6,096 bases of DNA from a virus. A program made the position numbers and the translations under genes. Positions 1 through 6,096 of the stretch are shown here, piece by piece; positions within the stretch are counted from its first letter, which is position 1; each line of letters starts with the position of its first letter. The notes under the pieces were generated by a model. That model had not been told where the DNA came from. It saw nothing but the letters and a program-made list of their open reading frames with translations, and did no database searches. The stretch is from positions 1-6,096 of the IMG/VR virus record IMGVR_UViG_3300020030_000076; one strand, 5' to 3'.

Positions 1-117
1 ATTATCATATCTTATTATTCACAAACTCGGAAGAAGTCTCAAAGGTATTACGATACTGTCACGATAAGAGTTGGAAATTCGGTCGTTCAGATTTCCAGAT
101 TGCCCGAGGTGGAGCTT
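1..117. repeat. Terminal redundancy, copy 1. Exact duplicate of 5980-6096, which marks a circular genome assembly.
   Basis: I compared the two ends base by base. attatcatatcttattattcacaaactcgg...gcccgaggtggagctt occurs at 1-117 and again at 5980-6096. The offset is 5979, a multiple of 3, so the Rep reading frame is preserved across the junction. Confidence 0.97.
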
Positions 118-1007
118 CTTCATACGTTTCGAGTTACGTTAATAGCCTTAGTTCTGCTCCCTTATTATATCGCTCATGCCGTGCGTTTAAACCCCGCTCG
201 AGAGCGTCTCTCGGATTCTTTGAGAAAGGTTGCGATCTCGTGGAAGGTGAAGAACCTTATGCGCAGATTGAGCAAAAAATCGATTCTGTCGTTAATGGAA
301 GAATCTACAACTTCAACGGCCTTAGTATTCGGTCAACTCCACCCATGTCGTATCTCCGTACCTTATTGCCCCGATTCTCGTCTGCTCGCAATGACGATAG
401 TATTGCGATTGCTCGAGTTCTTCGTGCTGTACACTCAGCGCCAAAAAGAATTGCAAAATACGGATTCATCGACTATAAACAGGATTCAGTCTTAAGTCTT
501 GTTCGTACTTATTATCAATATCTTAAGGTTAACCCTATTCTTACTGACGATGATAAGATTATACTACATTCTGCTAGGTGTCTTACTAGGTTCTGTAACA
601 GTTCTAGTGATGTCGATATTGAATCTTATATTAATAAGCTATATCGGTTATTCTTATATGTCTATAAGTTCTTCCGTAACTGGCATTTGCCTTCCTTTGG
701 CTGTAATATTGATTCTTATGCCGGTCGTATTATGTTTATTCTTAAAAAAGGTATAGAGTATGAGAAGAAAAAAAATTATGAAAGTTTACGAAATGTATTC
801 AACATACGCTCCGCTAACCCGAGCATATCGGATTGTATGTTTGCGTTGCCTGCGAACGGGCAGGAGCGTGATGTCTTGTCAGATGTTTCATGTGAAACGG
901 TTCAACTCCTTGAGCAACTCCGGTTCCGTAGTTCGACATTCTGTCGTGATATGATTAAACACAAGAAACTTAATGATGCTAATGGTGTTTTCAACCGTAT
1001 GGTTTAA
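1..1007 (+). CDS. VP4: Replication initiation protein VP4, C-terminal part. Same gene as 5307-6096, joined through the circular junction.
   Basis: The frame with codons starting at 3, 6, 9... is open from the window start to the TAA at 1005-1007 and is in phase with 5307. It reads YHILLFTNSEEVSKVLRYCHDKSWKFGRSDFQIARGGASSYVSSYVNSL... The Tyr pair Y-x3-Y (YVSSYVN, codons 123-125 and 135-137) mirrors the phiX174 gpA active-site YVAKYVN arrangement. The track ORF 240..1007 is only the tail of this gene, called from an internal GTG. The full protein is 559 aa. Confidence 0.9.
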   Translation, partial: YHILLFTNSEEVSKVLRYCHDKSWKFGRSDFQIARGGASSYVSSYVNSLSSAPLLYRSCRAFKPRSRASLGFFEKGCDLVEGEEPYAQIEQKIDSVVNGRIYNFNGLSIRSTPPMSYLRTLLPRFSSARNDDSIAIARVLRAVHSAPKRIAKYGFIDYKQDSVLSLVRTYYQYLKVNPILTDDDKIILHSARCLTRFCNSSSDVDIESYINKLYRLFLYVYKFFRNWHLPSFGCNIDSYAGRIMFILKKGIEYEKKKNYESLRNVFNIRSANPSISDCMFALPANGQERDVLSDVSCETVQLLEQLRFRSSTFCRDMIKHKKLNDANGVFNRMV

Positions 1008-1025
1008 TTTAAATATTAATTAATT

Positions 1026-2765
1026 ATGAGTGATTTTAATCCTTTAGACCGAGCTAAAATTCCTACCCATCGGTCCTCTTTCGACTTAAGTTCGAAGAAG
1101 TTGTTTACAGCCAAAGTAGGTGAAATCCTTCCTTGCTATTGGCAGATTGCTATTCCCGATACTAAGTATCGTATTTCGTCTGACTGGTTTACGCGTACTG
1201 TTCCTGTTAATACCGCTGCATATACCCGTATTAAGGAGTATTACGATTTCTACGCTGTACCGTTGCGTCTGATTTCTCGTGCACTTCCACAGGCATTCAC
1301 TCAGATGAGTGACTATATGACTAGTGCTGCTAGTTCTACTGCGAATACATCTGCACTTACTTCTGTACCCAATGTTACTCAGAATTTGTTTAATCTTTTC
1401 CTTCAGTCAGCTAATGCTGGTGACCAGACCAACACTCGTGACGATGCAGGGCTCCCTATCGTCTATGGTTCTTGTAAATTGCTTGATTTGCTTGGTTATG
1501 GCTCTATGATTGCACCTTCCAATACTGGTAAGGCTGCTATTACTAAGAAGTATTTAGGTGTTGATAATCTTGGTGATGCTGATAATCCTCTGGTTTATCA
1601 GACTTCGCAGACAGTCAATGCTCTTCCATTCCTTGCCTATCAGAAGATTTATTATGATTTTTTCAGTAATTCTCAATGGGAAAAACATAAGGCTTATGCT
1701 TATAATGTAGACTATTGGTCTGGAACTGGTGCTATTGGATTGGTTACGGATATGGTTCAGCTTCGTTATGCGAATTATCCGAAGGACTATTTCATGGGTA
1801 TGCTTCCATCTTCTCAGTATGGTTCGGTAGCTGTTTTGTCTGGTGTATTGTCCCCTTCTGATAACCCGTCCCGTGTTTTTGCTTGTACTTCCGATACTGA
1901 TTCTGTTGGCTCTATTTTGAATCCTGTCTCTTCTAATACAGTTTTTACTAATGATACTTCTGCCTCTGTTCGCTATGCTACTCTTAATTCTGACCTTTCC
2001 GCCCTTTCGATTCGTGCAACTGAATACCTTCAGCGCTGGAAAGAGGTAGTTCAATTCTCTAGTAAGGACTATTCAGACCAGATGGCTGCTCAGTTTGGTA
2101 TTAAGGCTCCCGAATACATGGGCAACCATGCGCATTATATTGGAGGCTGGTCTAGTGTTATTAATATCAATGAAGTGGTTAATACTAATCTTGATACTGA
2201 TTCTTCGCAGGCTTCTATTGCCGGTAAAGGAATTTCAAGTAATTCTGGCCATACTCTTACTTATGATTGTGGTGCTGAGCATCAGATTATTATGTGTGTA
2301 TATCATGCTGTACCTATGTTGGATTGGAATTTAACAGGTCAGGCTCCTCAGCTGACTGTTACTGCTATATCTGACTTTCCTCAACCTGCATTTGACCAGC
2401 TTGGTATGCAGTCTGTCCCTGCTCTTAATCTTCAGAATAATCCAAGTCGAAATGTTTCCGGCGCTCTTGGTTATAATCTTCGTTATTGGCAGTGGAAGTC
2501 CAATATTGATACCGTCCATGCTGGATTTCGCGCTGGTGCTGCTTATCAGTCTTGGGCTGCTCCTCTTGATGGTTGGCAGGTACTGACTTCCGGTGGTGCT
2601 TGGTCTTATCAATCCATGAAGGTTCGTCCTCAGCAATTGAATTCTATTTTCGTTCCTCAAGTTGATGCTACGAACTGTTCTGTTGCATTTGACCAGTTAT
2701 TATGTAATGTTAATTTTCAAGTATATGCTGTTCAGAACTTGGATAGAAATGGTTTACCTTTTTAA
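1026..2765 (+). CDS. VP1: Major capsid protein (Microviridae VP1 / F-like)
   Basis: 579-aa ORF and the largest gene. Its N-terminus, ...HRSSFDLSSKKLFTAKVGEILPCYWQIAIPDTKY...YTRIKEYYDFYAVPLRLI, matches the conserved N-terminal block of Microviridae VP1/F proteins. Third-position T bias is strong. The AT-rich leader has no Shine-Dalgarno sequence. Confidence 0.93.
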   Translation: MSDFNPLDRAKIPTHRSSFDLSSKKLFTAKVGEILPCYWQIAIPDTKYRISSDWFTRTVPVNTAAYTRIKEYYDFYAVPLRLISRALPQAFTQMSDYMTSAASSTANTSALTSVPNVTQNLFNLFLQSANAGDQTNTRDDAGLPIVYGSCKLLDLLGYGSMIAPSNTGKAAITKKYLGVDNLGDADNPLVYQTSQTVNALPFLAYQKIYYDFFSNSQWEKHKAYAYNVDYWSGTGAIGLVTDMVQLRYANYPKDYFMGMLPSSQYGSVAVLSGVLSPSDNPSRVFACTSDTDSVGSILNPVSSNTVFTNDTSASVRYATLNSDLSALSIRATEYLQRWKEVVQFSSKDYSDQMAAQFGIKAPEYMGNHAHYIGGWSSVININEVVNTNLDTDSSQASIAGKGISSNSGHTLTYDCGAEHQIIMCVYHAVPMLDWNLTGQAPQLTVTAISDFPQPAFDQLGMQSVPALNLQNNPSRNVSGALGYNLRYWQWKSNIDTVHAGFRAGAAYQSWAAPLDGWQVLTSGGAWSYQSMKVRPQQLNSIFVPQVDATNCSVAFDQLLCNVNFQVYAVQNLDRNGLPF

Positions 2766-2775
2766 TTAATTGATT

Positions 2776-3219
2776 ATGAGAAGTTTTGCTTATAAAAATC
2801 CCGATTATATTAAGAATGAGGTTGTTCCCGAGTTAATTGAGGATAACCCGTGTTATCAGCAGTCTGCATATGATTCAGTCATGTACGATGAAACTCCAGA
2901 CGGTGATTTGATTCAAGCTGATATGACCCAGATTTTGCTGAATCAGGAAAAATATCGTCGTTTGCTTGGTGATATGAACGTTCAGAATATCCTTGCCCAG
3001 ATGCATCCTACTCAGTCTACTGTTATGGATGGTATGACTGATGAAGAACGGTTTAATTGTGTTATTTCTCGTCATTGTCAGACGATGTCTGAAAGACAAG
3101 CTGTTCTTCAACAGCTGGCTGATGAGAAGTCTGAACTTTCTAAATATGCTGAAGCTATGTTGGCCGAGCAGAAGTCAGAGCCCGTTCCTGCGCCCGCCCC
3201 TGACACCGTTGCTCAATGA
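2776..3219 (+). CDS. Small acidic protein, possibly the internal scaffolding protein (VP3-like). Function not proven.
   Basis: The track ORF 2770..3219 starts at a TTG. The first ATG is at 2776 (MRSFAYKNPDYIK...). The gene is about 147 aa, sits between VP1 and VP2, and shows the same codon bias. Its stop overlaps the VP2 ATG (ATGA at 3216-3219). I recognise no diagnostic motif, so the VP3 label rests on size and position only. Confidence 0.55.
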   Translation: MRSFAYKNPDYIKNEVVPELIEDNPCYQQSAYDSVMYDETPDGDLIQADMTQILLNQEKYRRLLGDMNVQNILAQMHPTQSTVMDGMTDEERFNCVISRHCQTMSERQAVLQQLADEKSELSKYAEAMLAEQKSEPVPAPAPDTVAQ

Positions 3220-4331
3220 GGTTCTATGATATTGGAGAAAGCCCCTTAATGGGGCTCTCCGAGAAGCATATTGCTCCGCTCGTTCTTGGAGGCATTATCG
3301 CTGCCGGTGCTTCACTTGCTGGTAATGCTATTGGAGCGTCGTCTCAGAATAAGACTAACCAGACTAGTATTGATATTAATCGTGAGAATAATGCGTTTAA
3401 TGCTCAGCAGGCCCAGATTCAGCGTGACTGGCAAGAAAAAATGTGGGGAATGAATAATTCTTACAATTCCCCCAATGCGATGATTTCTCGTGGCTTGAAC
3501 CCGTTTGTCCAAGGCTCTGCTGCTATGGCTGGTTCTAGGTCTCCCGCTTCTGGTGGTGCTGCTGCTTCTGCTGCTTCTGCCCCTAGTTTACAGGCTTTTC
3601 GTCCCGACTTTTCGGATGTCGGTACTGCTCTTGCTTCTATGGCACAGGCTCGTGCTGCTATGATTAATGCTGAGCAGAATGCTGCTCTTACTCCGTATAA
3701 GATGCAGCAGATTTTAGGCGATACCAATTATCGTAATATTGGTGTTGGCCAGTCTGGCTATTGGAATGCATCTACTGGTAGAAAGTCCGCTTTGCTTGAC
3801 CAGTCTAAGGAATATCAGGAACTTAAGAATATGGAGTTTGCCGGTCGTCTTACTTCAGCTCAAGAATCCCAGATTCTACTCGATTCTCAAGCTCAACAGA
3901 TATTGAGTAAGTATCTTGATGAACAACAGCAGGCTGATTTGTTTATTAAAGGTCAGACTTTGGCTAATCTTTATGCTCAAGGCGCTCTTTCTGAAGCACA
4001 GTACAAAAATCAGATGGCCCAAGCTGTTAAGACTTCCGCTGAAACGAACGGTATTCGTATTAGTAACAGGATTGCTGAGCAGACGGCTGATTCATTGATT
4101 TATGCTAATATTCAAGCTAATCGTGCTCGTGGTCTGTCTTCTCTATGGGATTCTAAGAATACCAACGTTCTTAAGAATATAGAATATTCTAAGGATAAGG
4201 CTTTGCGTGATTATTATAAGTGGAGTTCTAAACAGAAACAGAAGGACGTTAACTCTTATGAATTGCGTAATGCCCTTGATTACGGTACTCGTGTTTTTCA
4301 AGGTGTTGGTAACAGTATCGGTAGAAAGTAG
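3216..4331 (+). CDS. VP2: Minor capsid / DNA pilot protein (Microviridae VP2, H-like)
   Basis: 371-aa ORF. It has an N-terminal hydrophobic Gly/Ala segment (IAPLVLGGIIAAGASLAGNAIGA), followed by NAFNAQQAQIQRDWQEKMWGMNNSYNSPNAMISRGLNPFV, an Ala/Ser/Gly-rich linker and a Gln-rich helical C-terminal half. This is the typical VP2 architecture. The start is ambiguous. The ATG at 3216 overlaps the upstream stop. An in-frame ATG at 3249 is preceded by GGAG (3234-3237). Confidence 0.85.
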   Translation: MRFYDIGESPLMGLSEKHIAPLVLGGIIAAGASLAGNAIGASSQNKTNQTSIDINRENNAFNAQQAQIQRDWQEKMWGMNNSYNSPNAMISRGLNPFVQGSAAMAGSRSPASGGAAASAASAPSLQAFRPDFSDVGTALASMAQARAAMINAEQNAALTPYKMQQILGDTNYRNIGVGQSGYWNASTGRKSALLDQSKEYQELKNMEFAGRLTSAQESQILLDSQAQQILSKYLDEQQQADLFIKGQTLANLYAQGALSEAQYKNQMAQAVKTSAETNGIRISNRIAEQTADSLIYANIQANRARGLSSLWDSKNTNVLKNIEYSKDKALRDYYKWSSKQKQKDVNSYELRNALDYGTRVFQGVGNSIGRK

Positions 4332-4409
4332 TCATTCTTCAGGACTAGAAGCCCATCGTGGCGTTTGAGCGATATACACCCGCTGCCCGCGTAGGGCCTG
4401 ATCGAAAAA

Positions 4410-4457
4410 CGGAGCGGAGCGACTTCCTTATAGGAGCGCCCCGCTCCGGTATTTTAG
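4410..4457 (+). terminator. GC-rich extended hairpin followed by a T-tract. Candidate intrinsic terminator of the capsid-gene transcript, or alternatively a structural element of the ssDNA.
   Basis: cggagcgg (4410-4417) pairs perfectly with ccgctccg (4441-4448). Inner pairs are gcg (4419-4421) with cgc (4437-4439) and cttc (4423-4426) with ggag (4433-4436, including one G-T pair), with a 6-nt loop. The hairpin is followed by gTATTTTag (4449-4457). It lies about 80 nt after the VP2 stop. Confidence 0.45.
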
Positions 4458-4473
4458 CACGTAGGTGCGCAAA

Positions 4474-4496
4474 GGCAAGACAGTTTCTGCCTTGCC
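4474..4496 (+). other. Second hairpin in the intergenic core
   Basis: ggcaag-a-cag ttt ctg-c-cttgcc gives 6+3 bp with one A/C mismatch and a 3-nt loop. It is flanked by gcac (4457-4460) and gtgc (4497-4500), which could close a larger structure. Confidence 0.5.
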
Positions 4497-4562
4497 GTGC
4501 CTATACACCCCTGTATACATTCACTTGTTAATTAAGCGAAGCCCCTAGTTGTGTGCGAAGCA

Positions 4563-4585
4563 AATTCGAGTTATCCTCTCGAATT
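4563..4585. repeat. Perfect 8-bp inverted repeat AATTCGAG / CTCGAATT with a 7-nt loop
   Basis: Read directly: aattcgag (4563-4570), ttatcct, ctcgaatt (4578-4585). It is followed by the pyrimidine-rich stretch ctccatttcttgtct. Confidence 0.6.
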
Positions 4586-4651
4586 CTCCATTTCTTGTCT
4601 ATAAACGCACAACTCACACTCTACGGTAGAATCTAAAAAAAAGAGATTTCT

Positions 4652-4682
4652 TTTGGATTTATGAAAATAGTTCGTATATTTG
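4652..4682 (+). promoter_or_regulatory. Bacteroidetes-type (sigma-ABfr-like) promoter: -33 TTTG and -7 TAnnTTTG
   Basis: TTTG at 4652-4655 and TATATTTG at 4675-4682 are separated by 19 nt. An upstream A8 tract lies at 4635-4642. In a by-eye scan of the window I found no other TAnnTTTG match. It sits about 50 nt upstream of the first ATG of the small-ORF/Rep gene string. Confidence 0.55.
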
Positions 4683-4731
4683 CCCCAGTTAGAAGTTACA
4701 ACTATTATTAACCCTTTAAATTTTTACAATT

Positions 4732-4926
4732 ATGCAAAAGTTTATTATTTCAGTTAAAGAAAAAAATACTGGTCGTGATGTTATCTCGCCTTATCTCGTT
4801 AATTCTCTCGCAGGTCTTGGACATTATTCTGAGCAACTTTCTCCGATGGGTCTTATTATTATTGTGGATTCGATTAAAGAAGAGGATGATTTTGTTGACC
4901 TTAAATCTCAAAGTAATGAAAACTAG
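4732..4926 (+). CDS. Hypothetical 64-aa protein with an acidic C-terminus
   Basis: ATG at 4732 and TAG at 4924-4926. Third-position T bias is very strong (ttt att att ... ggt cgt gat gtt ...), matching the other phage genes. It is the first ORF after the promoter. I recognise no motif. Confidence 0.6.
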   Translation: MQKFIISVKEKNTGRDVISPYLVNSLAGLGHYSEQLSPMGLIIIVDSIKEEDDFVDLKSQSNEN

Positions 4927-4999
4927 TAATATTTGGAAAATTGTAATTGGAGCTGTTTCTGCTGCTCTAGGTTATATTCTTAATTCTATTGGATTATGA
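4916..4999 (+). CDS. 27-aa single-pass membrane peptide (MKTSNIWKIVIGAVSAALGYILNSIGL). Candidate holin-like or lysis accessory peptide.
   Basis: ATG at 4916-4918. The start overlaps the orf64 stop by 11 nt, and the stop overlaps the peptidase start (ATGA at 4996-4999). From 4916 onward this frame carries the genomic third-position-T bias (act agt aat att ... gct gtt tct gct gct). Upstream of 4916 the same frame (track ORF 4775..4999) has T at codon position 2 and overlaps orf64, so it is probably not coding there. Confidence 0.5.
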   Translation: MKTSNIWKIVIGAVSAALGYILNSIGL

Positions 5000-5304
5000 A
5001 TAGTACTCTTATGGATTTTCTTGACCATTTGTTATGCTTTAACTTGCATTTTACAATAACAAGCGCTAAGCGTTCTATTGCTGAAAATAAAGCTGCTGGA
5101 GGTGTTCCTAATTCACAACATTTGGTTGGAGAAGCTGTTGATATTAAGCCGTATGGTTCTACTACTTATAATCGGTTGCTCGAACATATTCATAACTATT
5201 CAGCTAGTACTCATGTGTTTGACCAACTGATATTGTATTCTACATTTATTCATATTTCATTTGGTGAGCGTAATCGCCATCAAGTTATTGACAAGCGCAA
5301 ATAA
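4996..5304 (+). CDS. Compact zinc D-Ala-D-Ala carboxypeptidase-like peptidase (M15 / LAS superfamily). Putative endolysin.
   Basis: ...ITSAKRSIAENKAAGGVPNSQHLVGEAVDI... matches the M15 signature SxxRS-x3-N-x3-GG-x3-SxH-x2-G-x-A-x-D. The H-x6-D pair is His codon 5119-5121 and Asp codon 5140-5142. A distal FIHISF His (5251-5253) is the likely third zinc ligand. The protein is 102 aa, near the minimum size for this fold. Confidence 0.8.
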   Translation: MNSTLMDFLDHLLCFNLHFTITSAKRSIAENKAAGGVPNSQHLVGEAVDIKPYGSTTYNRLLEHIHNYSASTHVFDQLILYSTFIHISFGERNRHQVIDKRK

Positions 5305-5306
5305 TT

Positions 5307-6096
5307 ATGAAATTTTCTCCCGATTTGCTTAAGGCTGTTGGCCATTGTCAGCATCGTTCATTCATCACAAATAGGTATAATGGTGCACGTATTGCAGTAG
5401 ATTGCGGTCAATGCGATTATTGTATTCATAAGAAAGCCCAGAAAGCGTCTATGCGCGTGAGGACCGCTGGAAGTGCTTTTAAGTATTCTTATTTTGTTAC
5501 ACTTACTTATGATAATGAACATATTCCTCTTATGACTTGTAAGGTTTTGCAGAGTGATTATGAGGATGTTATAGGCATTTCGGGAGATATTCATTTTGGT
5601 CATGAATTCCACAAGTATATTCCTGTTTCTGAATATCAATGTGATGATAACTCCACTTTGCGTCATATATTCTTCGAGCAAGTACAAGGCACAGTGCCGT
5701 TTGACCGTGAAATTAAGGAATATGTTCCTGTTAGGGATAATTGGTTTCTTAGTATGGATGCTATTCGTAGTTTTATCTATAAGACGCAGTCGGTTGACAA
5801 AACGGATTATCCCGCTTCTGGACAATACGGTCGTGATAACCTTATTCCCTTTCTAAACTATGCTGATGTTCAGAATTATATTAAAAGATTACGTAAATAT
5901 TTATATAAGCAATTAGGTTCTTATGAAACGTTACATTTCTACGCTGTCGGTGAGTACGGCCCTGTCCATTTCCGCCCGCATTATCATATCTTATTATTCA
6001 CAAACTCGGAAGAAGTCTCAAAGGTATTACGATACTGTCACGATAAGAGTTGGAAATTCGGTCGTTCAGATTTCCAGATTGCCCGAGGTGGAGCTT
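5307..6096 (+). CDS. VP4: Replication initiation protein (Microviridae VP4, HUH rolling-circle endonuclease), N-terminal part. The frame is open to the window end and continues at 1-1007.
   Basis: ATG at 5307, 2 nt after the upstream TAA. My hand translation found no stop through 6096: MKFSPDLLKAVGHCQHRSFITNRYNGARIAVDCGQCDYCIHKK...FVTLTYDNEH...GEYGPVHFRPHYHILLFTN... A CGxCxxC cysteine cluster lies at 5403-5423. RCR motif I (FVTLTY) is at 5493-5510. The HUH motif (H-Y-H) is at 5979-5987. This gene is absent from the ORF track because there is no stop before the window end. Confidence 0.9.
   Translation, partial: MKFSPDLLKAVGHCQHRSFITNRYNGARIAVDCGQCDYCIHKKAQKASMRVRTAGSAFKYSYFVTLTYDNEHIPLMTCKVLQSDYEDVIGISGDIHFGHEFHKYIPVSEYQCDDNSTLRHIFFEQVQGTVPFDREIKEYVPVRDNWFLSMDAIRSFIYKTQSVDKTDYPASGQYGRDNLIPFLNYADVQNYIKRLRKYLYKQLGSYETLHFYAVGEYGPVHFRPHYHILLFTNSEEVSKVLRYCHDKSWKFGRSDFQIARGGA
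5980..6096. repeat. Terminal redundancy, copy 2. Exact duplicate of 1-117.
   Basis: Same comparison as for copy 1. The repeat lies inside the Rep coding sequence and includes the HUH motif codons. This points to an assembly overlap of a circle rather than a biological terminal repeat. Confidence 0.97.

Follow-up and report, generated by a model that had tools for sequence, protein, structure and literature searches.

Why does a phage genome whose genes otherwise abut or overlap keep 400 nt without a gene between VP2 and the gene that follows? The question is raised by the window analyzed here, a stretch of 6096 nt (positions 1 to 6096 of the IMG/VR virus record IMGVR_UViG_3300020030_000076), which comprises a circular 5979-nt microvirus genome plus a terminal redundancy of 117 nt and carries all genes of the phage on the + strand. 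The 400-nt gap (positions 4332-4731) is best explained as a cis-acting control region for replication and expression. Probably, it is a replication-origin region that works as folded viral (+) strand DNA. Its core module (4530-4622) is quite possibly, to judge by analogy with other phages, the complementary-strand origin, i.e., a single-strand initiation signal.

Conservation and covariation of the non-coding region

A first-pass annotation, made from the letters of this DNA alone, had singled out positions 4332-4731 as the only large gap of the genome. The lists of open reading frames (ORFs) confirm this together with the junction coordinates: the region is the only sizeable gap because the genes elsewhere are separated by 2-18 nt (1008-1025, 2766-2775, and 5305-5306) or overlap (ATGA at 3216 and 4996). 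The further claim that neither strand of the gap holds an ORF stands for frames started by ATG, none of at least 40 aa being present in 4332-4731 on either strand. It does not stand for GTG and TTG starts, with which ORFs appear at 4358-4531 (+ strand, 57 aa) and 4428-4520 (- strand, 30 aa). The 57-aa ORF was rejected as a gene: its GTG start is found in one of 56 homologues, its frame is broken in more than half of them, and its variation shows no 3-nt periodicity (329/410/390). A conserved small ORF thus does not explain the region. The third-position T bias seen by the first-pass annotation in the genes (0.49-0.58) is indeed absent from all three frames of the gap (0.28-0.31), and neither a conserved open frame nor a codon-position pattern, both looked for as signs of protein coding, was found there.

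In GenBank, 35 microviruses from samples of dog, human, and lemur have the homologous region at the same place after VP2 (72-90% identity). For several of them megablast no longer aligns the diverged capsid genes but still aligns the region and the Rep block; in such mosaic relatives, the region is co-inherited with Rep and not with the capsid genes. A search with a 17-nt motif of the region yielded about 109 IMG/VR microvirus contigs of roughly 6 kb each, and a pattern specific for the core module matched at least 120 metagenome contigs, mostly from the human gut. In an alignment of 46 genomes, the region is the most conserved stretch (mean column identity 0.86, compared with 0.62-0.80 for the genes), a value somewhat inflated at 4372-4392, as the comparison set was chosen by a 21-nt motif located there.

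The gap folds better than shuffled sequence, both as RNA (z = -4.2) and as single-stranded DNA (ssDNA; z = -4.4). Within the window's clade, pairs were counted for ten helices read from the alignment, using 56 non-redundant sequences less than 95% identical to one another. With this manual structure, 95% of the cells pair over the whole region, as against 25-46% when the partners are slid by 1-3 columns. The number of doubly changed pairs amounts to 22, compared with 10.5 in shuffles, and none of the 500 shuffles reaches 22.

The structure extends well beyond close relatives, to hundreds of microviruses of the Bacteroides type. When VP1 was compared by tblastn with the phage collection, capsid identity fell abruptly from at least 66%, in 34 records that all carry the full element, to 39% or less. 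This marks the window's clade off sharply inside a wider lineage whose other members have the core module alone in common with it. The capsid search returned more than 7,700 close homologues, and a search with a mixed VP1 alignment returned close relatives only. Six genomes beyond the drop each have a non-coding stretch after VP2 with the same layout by eye and fully compensated helices. A covariance model of the module, R1, was trained on the window's clade alone; run with filters off, it found its best match in the post-VP2 gap of all six, full-length and on the + strand (E-values from 8e-9 to 0.13). Among 100 further distant IMG/VR genomes (capsid identity about 40% or less), R1 gave 80 matches, 75 of them at E-values of 5e-4 or better, and it gave none in 735 kb of control DNA (bacterial, phiX174, and M13). 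All matches lie on the gene strand, the sole exception being an inverted-duplicate contig. In the distant matches 97.3% of the cells pair, 17 of 20 pairs show compensatory changes, and the covariation score is 0.68 as against 0.17 in shuffles. R1 also matches phiHBP1, the first cultured microvirus of Bacteroides fragilis, at 2325-2421 of PV598014 on the gene strand (E = 2.6e-6), about 48 nt upstream of a large ORF that is taken as the replication initiator by size and position, since all genes but VP1 are annotated as hypothetical in that record. The covariation, with its shuffled and slid controls, demonstrates a stable intrastrand structure maintained by selection, which bears out the earlier supposition that the gap is functional. 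The main features of its 3' part, with the whole region for orientation, are as follows.

4332-4731, + strand: whole non-coding region, between the VP2 stop codon and the ATG of a 64-aa ORF (orf64), delimited by the ORF lists and the lack of codon bias
4530-4622, + strand: core module, a 93-nt three-way junction described by covariance model R1 (window match 116.5 bits)
4536-4542, + strand: mini-hairpin M1, GCGAAGC, a direct repeat; closing pair in the distant set GC (50) or AU (21)
4547-4554/4607-4614, + strand: helix H7, which closes the junction; compensatory changes in three of eight pairs within the clade and six of eight across clades
4555-4561, + strand: mini-hairpin M2, GCGAAGC; closing pair GC (28), CG (20), or AU (7)
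4563-4570/4578-4585, + strand: hairpin H8 with the conserved loop TTATCCT; compensatory changes in seven of eight pairs within the clade and all eight across clades
4586-4606, + strand: single-stranded junction segment of 21 nt with a pyrimidine tract, the near-invariant CTTGTC (4594-4599), and ATAAACG
4615-4619, + strand: conserved 3' flank CACAC, replaced by GACAC or ACAG in other clades
4635-4642, + strand: run of eight A between module and promoter, with A-runs likewise placed in relatives
4652-4683, + strand: Bacteroides-type promoter with -33 element TTTG (4652-4655), 19-nt spacer, and -7 element TATATTTGC (4675-4683)

Both paired and unpaired parts of this structure are constrained. The unpaired motifs GATATACACCCGC, CTATACACC, GGAGCGNAGCGAC, the TTATC of the H8 loop, CTTGTC-ATAAACG, and AACTCACAC are invariant or nearly so, and the pattern CT[TC]G-N17-19-[GC]ACA[CG] matches the equivalent locus in all seven lineages compared. 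M2 also occurs as CCGAAGG, ACGAAGT, and GCGAAAGC. Motifs of the type N-CGAAG-N' with complementary closing nucleotides number four in the genome, compared with an expectation of 0.85 per strand; a pair of them, 19 nt apart, lies in the module. G-T wobbles account for 2% of the paired cells in the module, as against 7% in the 5' domain. The division of the gap into a GC-rich 5' half and an AT-rich 3' half, proposed earlier, is correct as to composition (GC content 0.54 at 4345-4560 and 0.30 at 4561-4731, with 0.40 for the genome), but the conserved core straddles both halves.

A probable folded ssDNA signal and the origin it might serve

The first-pass annotation had named a complementary-strand origin and a Rep nick site among several candidate roles. 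An origin-type role of the ssDNA fits best, given the mini-hairpins, and either of the two origins is a candidate. As in a complementary-strand origin, the module is non-coding, lies on the packaged (+) strand in an orientation fixed relative to the genes, and carries DNA mini-hairpins of the GCGNAGC/GCGNNAGC type (M1 and M2) whose closing pairs covary. As DNA, mini-hairpins of this type are of extraordinary stability; as RNA they are markedly weaker, and single-stranded DNA-binding protein (SSB) binds them poorly. They occur at the primase origins of G4, St-1, and alpha3, in RSF1010 ssiA, and in the hairpin promoters of N4 (PMC13037366, a 2026 review). In other microvirus clades, conserved intergenic hairpins with compensatory changes have tentatively been connected with negative-strand initiation (PMC9865509). 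A priming signal is preferred here because the mini-hairpins are tied to priming sites, because intergenic hairpins have a precedent in Microviridae, and because an SSB-resistant fold is needed on the entering strand.

The proposed course of events is the following. The viral strand would enter a Bacteroides cell and become coated with SSB, while the very stable mini-hairpins and helices would hold the module in its fold and clear of SSB. Recognition of this fold could then fall to DnaG primase, a PriA-type primosome, or RNA polymerase as the priming enzyme of the host, and synthesis of the complementary strand would begin 3' of H8, in the exposed single-stranded segment. The 5' domain, with two units of the form 'hairpin + TATACACC' and the long hairpin H3, might act as an accessory part, and the Rep nick site, i.e., the viral-strand origin, may share the module. 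The ORFs and Pfam assignments of the phage genome include no primase or polymerase gene. It is conceivable, though we regard it as rather doubtful, that the module represents a new class of ssDNA initiation signal, specific to Bacteroidota microviruses and recruiting a host enzyme in a manner unlike the E. coli systems, or else that both origins are combined in it, with Rep nicking CTTGTC. Possible routes of recruitment are DnaG using another start motif, recognition of the fork-like junction by PriA, or Bacteroides RNA polymerase on the folded template.

Comparison with known systems places the module near the origins of G4, St-1, alpha3, and phiK in architecture. In both, stable hairpins cluster between genes on the viral strand in a fixed orientation (PMC13037366), and both have a GCGNAGC or GCGNNAGC mini-hairpin and a single-stranded start, putative in the module, 3' of a hairpin. 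The G4-type origins, however, consist of three tandem hairpins, whereas the module is built as a three-way junction carrying a pair of GAA mini-hairpins; the module conserves not the CTG start triplet of E. coli DnaG but the motif CT[TC]G; and the host is Bacteroides. The n' (PriA) site of phiX174 is likewise a hairpin-containing signal for the complementary strand, located in the F-G intergenic region, in which GCGAAGC also occurs, but it shows no alignable similarity to the module and R1 has no match in phiX174. That PriA reads the branched fold in Bacteroides is speculation. In the phiX174 genome, GCGAAGC occurs at 2358 (F-G intergenic region) and CCGAAGG at 4333, 5 nt after the 30-nt viral-strand origin; mini-hairpin motifs thus flank both of its origin regions. 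A hairpin in ssDNA with a C-GAA-G or C-GGA-G loop is also read by a primase or polymerase in RSF1010 ssiA/ssiB (CCGAAGG in ssiA) and in the N4 promoters (PMC13037366), with the difference that the enzymes there, RepB' and the N4 virion RNA polymerase (vRNAP), are encoded by the element itself, and the phage of the window encodes none. A precedent among microviruses is found in the reekeekee- and roodoodoo-microviruses, with conserved non-coding DNA hairpins, compensatory substitutions, and a tentative role in negative-strand synthesis (PMC9865509). There the hairpins are simple, occur singly or in pairs, and belong to unrelated clades whose genomes are small, whereas the present module is a larger multi-helix structure with mini-hairpins, spread over a broad Bacteroides-associated lineage and described by a covariance model.

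The same architecture could be read the other way round, the core module being the viral-strand (+) origin, whose hairpins Rep would bind and whose exposed segment it would nick, and the 5' domain being the complementary-strand origin; we consider this possible but unlikely. Candidate nicks would be CTTG/TC around 4597 or the AT-rich stretch 4521-4535. The module is universal and its left border is a hot spot of insertion and recombination, while the 5' domain is dispensable or replaceable, as expected of an essential origin next to an exchangeable single-strand origin (sso). The order also agrees with the filamentous Ff phages (M13/f1) and rolling-circle plasmids, where several hairpins are concentrated in one non-coding region and the complementary-strand origin directly precedes the viral-strand one, beside the promoter of the initiator. 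Rep of the window falls in the same family, PF23343 (ORF2/G2P), as the initiator of Ff, which acts at an intergenic origin. Unlike in Ff, no packaging hairpin is required by microviruses, and the origin roles of the several parts are putative.

Resemblance to the phiX174 origin bears on this reading from both sides. The succession of pyrimidine tract, CTTG, N17-18, and (G/C)ACAC, found in all seven lineages, shares its layout with the phiX174 origin CCCCCAACTTG-N17-GACCAC, beside which a CCGAAGG mini-hairpin also stands. This likeness (4594-4619) is loose, however: scored over the whole genome, the best gapped and ungapped matches to the 30-nt phiX174 consensus CAACTTGATATTAATAACACTATAGACCAC remain at the level of shuffled sequence. 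The best ungapped candidate (18 of 30) falls inside VP1. A gapped one, CTT-ATATTAATAA-GCTATA at 625-643 in rep, scores 23 compared with a null of 19.6 +/- 2.5, lacks a counterpart in distant genomes, and was set aside as chance. Similarity to M13 is also at chance level, the best local alignment falling at the M13 origin with a score equal to the shuffled mean. Moreover, an origin of the phiX174 type lies inside the initiator gene, unlike the module, which is located between genes. Within rep, islands where synonymous variation is low coincide with alternative-frame ORFs. To our knowledge, every characterized member of the Microviridae has its + origin within rep, the intergenic hairpins serving the complementary strand, which speaks against a nick site in the module. 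So do the GAA loops, which are special only in + strand ssDNA and are tied mainly to priming sites (PMC13037366).

Several observations nevertheless weigh against the reading of the module as a complementary-strand origin, some of them by favoring the nick site. Hairpins 5' of an exposed, conserved single-stranded segment would suit the nick site of an HUH Rep equally well. The module is always located upstream of the block that contains rep, directly before the promoter of this block, and it follows Rep, not the capsid genes, in inheritance. Its position in phiHBP1, next to the putative initiator gene, is the usual place of a double-strand origin (dso). No other viral-strand origin was located in scans of the genome for the phiX174 origin. 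The folding energy of the module alone is unremarkable (z = -1.9) with standard DNA parameters, which include no bonus for mini-hairpins, and M2 is lacking in at least one distant lineage (genome L302; such L-numbers label the compared genomes and contigs). As for the distant set, its alignment was fitted to R1, which favors the structure and may under-count wobble pairs. Finally, read-through transcripts of the capsid operon would contain the region, and the 5' domain tolerates G-U pairs.

The 5' domain, transcription, and integration

Upstream of the module lies a domain with a different pattern of conservation.

about 4337-4520, + strand: 5' accessory GC-rich domain with hairpins H1-H6, from alignments and pair counts
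4355-4359/4369-4373, + strand: hairpin H1; one pair shows GC, AU, and CG, and the invariant GATATACACCCGC follows directly 3'
4373-4381, + strand: first copy of the direct repeat TATACACCC, within the invariant GATATACACCCGC (4372-4384)
4385-4397, + strand: hairpin H2, GCCC-GCGTA-GGGC; compensatory change from CG to UA in four sequences
4410-4458, + strand: terminator-like H3, a long imperfect GC-rich hairpin (4410-4448) with the tail GGTATTTTAG
4457-4468, + strand: hairpin H4, GCAC-N4-GTGC; compensatory change from AU to GC in 14 of 56 sequences
4469-4471/4498-4500, 4474-4479/4491-4496, and 4481-4483/4487-4489, + strand: hairpin H5
4502-4517, + strand: second copy of TATACACCC (4502-4510), which also supplies the 5' arm of hairpin H6 (4502-4507/4512-4517), an optional structure
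4521-4529, + strand: hot spot of insertion and recombination, ACTTGTTAA, at the left border of the core module

This domain is found in most of the window's clade and is specific to it. Genomes L268, L286, and L293 keep only the 3' part of the region and have a plain terminator hairpin with a T-run instead (nhmmer), while L255 retains only H3, followed by six T; the genomes without the domain join at the same point of the hot spot. The 5' domain is therefore accessory and the module at 4530-4622 constant. The GC-rich block at 4345-4560, which the first-pass annotation described as hairpin-dense, is thus mostly accessory and clade-specific, and it is lacking in some close relatives. H5 shows the compensatory variants GGCAGG/CCTGCC, GACAAG/CTTGTC, and GGGAG/CTCCC. 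H6, a short palindrome around TGTATA, is missing in seven of 56 sequences. In distant clades, TATAC[AC]C is found again on the 5' side of the module, at a distance of 13-18 nt or of about 147 nt. Two pairings were dropped: a long-range one between GGAGCG... and GCGAAGCCCC, proposed by RNAalifold, lacks covariation, and a minimum-free-energy pairing of 4351-4354 with 4394-4397 is supported by L014 only and contradicted by GCCT/AGGC variants.

At the hot spot, many relatives carry inserted unrelated extra hairpins or tandem repeats. One genome (L072) holds three tandem copies of a unit of about 20 nt (GTCAAGTCCAGGACTTACAC), and L014 has about 140 extra nt.

H3 raises the question of whether the region acts as RNA instead, i.e., as an element of the capsid mRNA (3' untranslated region, processing, or stability), as a terminator, or as a new phage non-coding RNA (ncRNA). 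The region lies on the transcribed strand directly 3' of VP2 and is not preceded by a terminator in the window; H3, whose 5' arm contains the invariant GGAGCGNAGCGAC, is followed by GGUAUUUUAG in a terminator-like manner; the 5' domain has many one-sided G-U changes, H3 itself combining such changes with one compensatory pair; and the RNA fold departs from shuffled sequence as described above. We nevertheless consider an RNA role improbable for the region. Searches of the whole window and of the region against the 4227 Rfam families at E-values up to 10 gave chance-level matches to snoRNAs and leaders, none near the gathering score, which lends no support to a known RNA family, and a scan for tRNA and tmRNA found none. 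Neither a dedicated promoter nor a dedicated terminator frames the core module, a terminator precedes it in L268 and L286, the C-GAA-G triloops are a stability motif specific to DNA (PMC13037366), and wobble pairs in the module are rare. Covariation lends RNA no positive support, because RNA and + strand DNA cannot be told apart by it. Taken together, the C-GAA-G loops, the rare wobbles, the order of terminator, module, and promoter, and the lack of an Rfam match lean toward DNA; an RNA role may apply to H1-H3. The terminator suggested by the first-pass annotation is supported insofar as H3 was flagged by a terminator scan, although its tail has only 3-4 T in most relatives (six in L255). Probably, H3 also terminates transcription of the capsid operon. 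In L268 and L286, the module sits between an intrinsic terminator and the next promoter. A strict terminator scan upstream of the module gave a weak enrichment (10 of 79 genomes compared with 5% in controls), and so a universal terminator in this position is not claimed.

The promoter that the first-pass annotation placed in the AT-rich half is of the Bacteroides -33/-7 type and conserved across relatives, both TTTG blocks being invariant in 13 of them. In sigma-AB promoters of Bacteroides, the -33 and -7 elements are spaced about 19-21 nt apart, and TTTG-N19-TATATTTGC agrees with this type. The -7 consensus in Bacteroides is TANNTTTGY (PMC12632263). From its position, the promoter would drive the block of orf64, peptidase, and Rep. 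Its type, together with the phiHBP1 match, therefore fixes Bacteroidales as the host group.

The proximity of this promoter invites the idea that the module is a transcription-control element, either an operator or an insulator between late and early blocks. The module does lie 30 nt upstream of the -33 element, and a full promoter motif occurs within 160 nt downstream of it in 44 of 79 distant genomes. The other 35 have no consensus promoter nearby, however, the distance between module and promoter varies among clades, and no candidate regulator gene was identified in the phage. Covariation and strand-specific GAA loops would be unexpected for a duplex operator, and we hold such a function to be very unlikely.

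An attP- or dif-like site for XerCD-mediated lysogeny, another candidate of the first-pass annotation, has in its favor that Bacteroidales proviruses with dif-like att sites have been described (PMC3091885) and that H6 forms a palindrome; it is nonetheless extremely improbable. H6 is optional, inspection by eye around TGTATA showed no adjacent pair of arms like those of a 28-bp dif-like site, which has two 11-bp arms and a 6-bp spacer, and a duplex recombination site would not explain the covariation of the hairpins. In 596 Gb of genome contigs, at least 120 matches to the 17-nt motif were found, none of those listed carrying the element; these matches are due to chance, because the motif is too short for a search space of this size. 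No provirus or host-embedded copy occurs among the matches listed. The metagenome contigs with the module are all, as far as listed, 10.3 kb or shorter. Of the seven listed that exceed 7 kb, six are unit-length concatemers and the seventh (L528, OHMN01002787.1, 7469 nt) is not obviously so. Likewise, the best 120 of the more than 7,700 capsid homologues are all on contigs of at most 12 kb, mostly of about 6 kb. A BLAST search of PLSDB gave only chance matches of 22-25 nt and no plasmid counterpart, and phiHBP1 does not lysogenize (PMC13064476).

Neighboring genes and significance of the element

The genes around the region are arranged as follows.

1026-2765, + strand: VP1 (PF02305)
2776-3219, + strand: scaffold-like ORF of 147 aa
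3216-4331, + strand: VP2, with its stop codon at 4329-4331
4732-4926, + strand: orf64, 64 aa, ATG at 4732; first conserved gene 3' of the gap
4996-5304, + strand: M15 peptidase
5307 wrapping to 1007, + strand: Rep, an HUH protein (Pfam PF23343, ORF2/G2P replication protein)

The gene directly 3' of the gap is therefore not Rep, as had been assumed, but orf64, which is followed by the peptidase and only then by Rep. Overlapping orf64 in a different frame is a 73-aa ORF at 4778-4999, whose end forms an ATGA overlap with the peptidase gene. Its stretch is highly conserved (0.83-0.85), and its product has a hydrophobic tail and no Pfam match; a role in lysis as a partner of the peptidase is conceivable. 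Within the 3' half of rep, ATG-started ORFs in alternative frames lie at 259-495, 550-756, and 760-954, the second encoding a very hydrophobic peptide of 68 aa. In rep, identity at third codon positions is highest at 348-422 and 561-638 (0.86-0.94, compared with a mean of 0.60), as expected of overprinted genes or of an embedded cis element.

Some database records that turned up in the searches call for separate mention. L140 (OY969813.1, an uncultured Bacteroidetes metagenome-assembled genome) contains the 17-nt search motif four times between 3295 and 5021, at a spacing of exactly 570 nt, which indicates a tandem repeat; it gave no nhmmer match and is unrelated to the phage element. L411, a contig of 7760 nt, has the module near both ends, at 193-288 (+ strand) and 7473-7568 (- strand), which points to an inverted duplication made in assembly or to a dimer joined head to head. 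In four deposited genomes, coding sequences annotated as 'hypothetical protein' extend over the element or promoter: phiHBP1 (L468, PV598014; 2326-2736), Dulem virus 257 (L300; 3581-3784), Dulem virus 242 (L007; 1458-1784), and OP549867 (L003; 1795-2091). These are probably annotation artefacts.

The searchable literature yielded no description of replication origins of Bacteroides-associated microviruses, although these are among the most abundant phages of the mammalian gut. Intergenic hairpins of microviruses are known as a kind (PMC9865509), and no description of the present element was found. The element appears unrelated in sequence to the classical origins, has a distinct architecture, and belongs to a large and abundant lineage of gut phages. 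As a marker, it helps to recognize and orient such genomes and corrects spurious hypothetical-protein calls. The module might also be put to use in ssDNA vectors for Bacteroides. The machinery by which Bacteroidota prime ssDNA templates is essentially unstudied, and a defined cis element with its covariance model provides a handle on the start of replication in Bacteroidota phages. Since phiHBP1, a phage in culture, carries the module, the question can be taken up experimentally.

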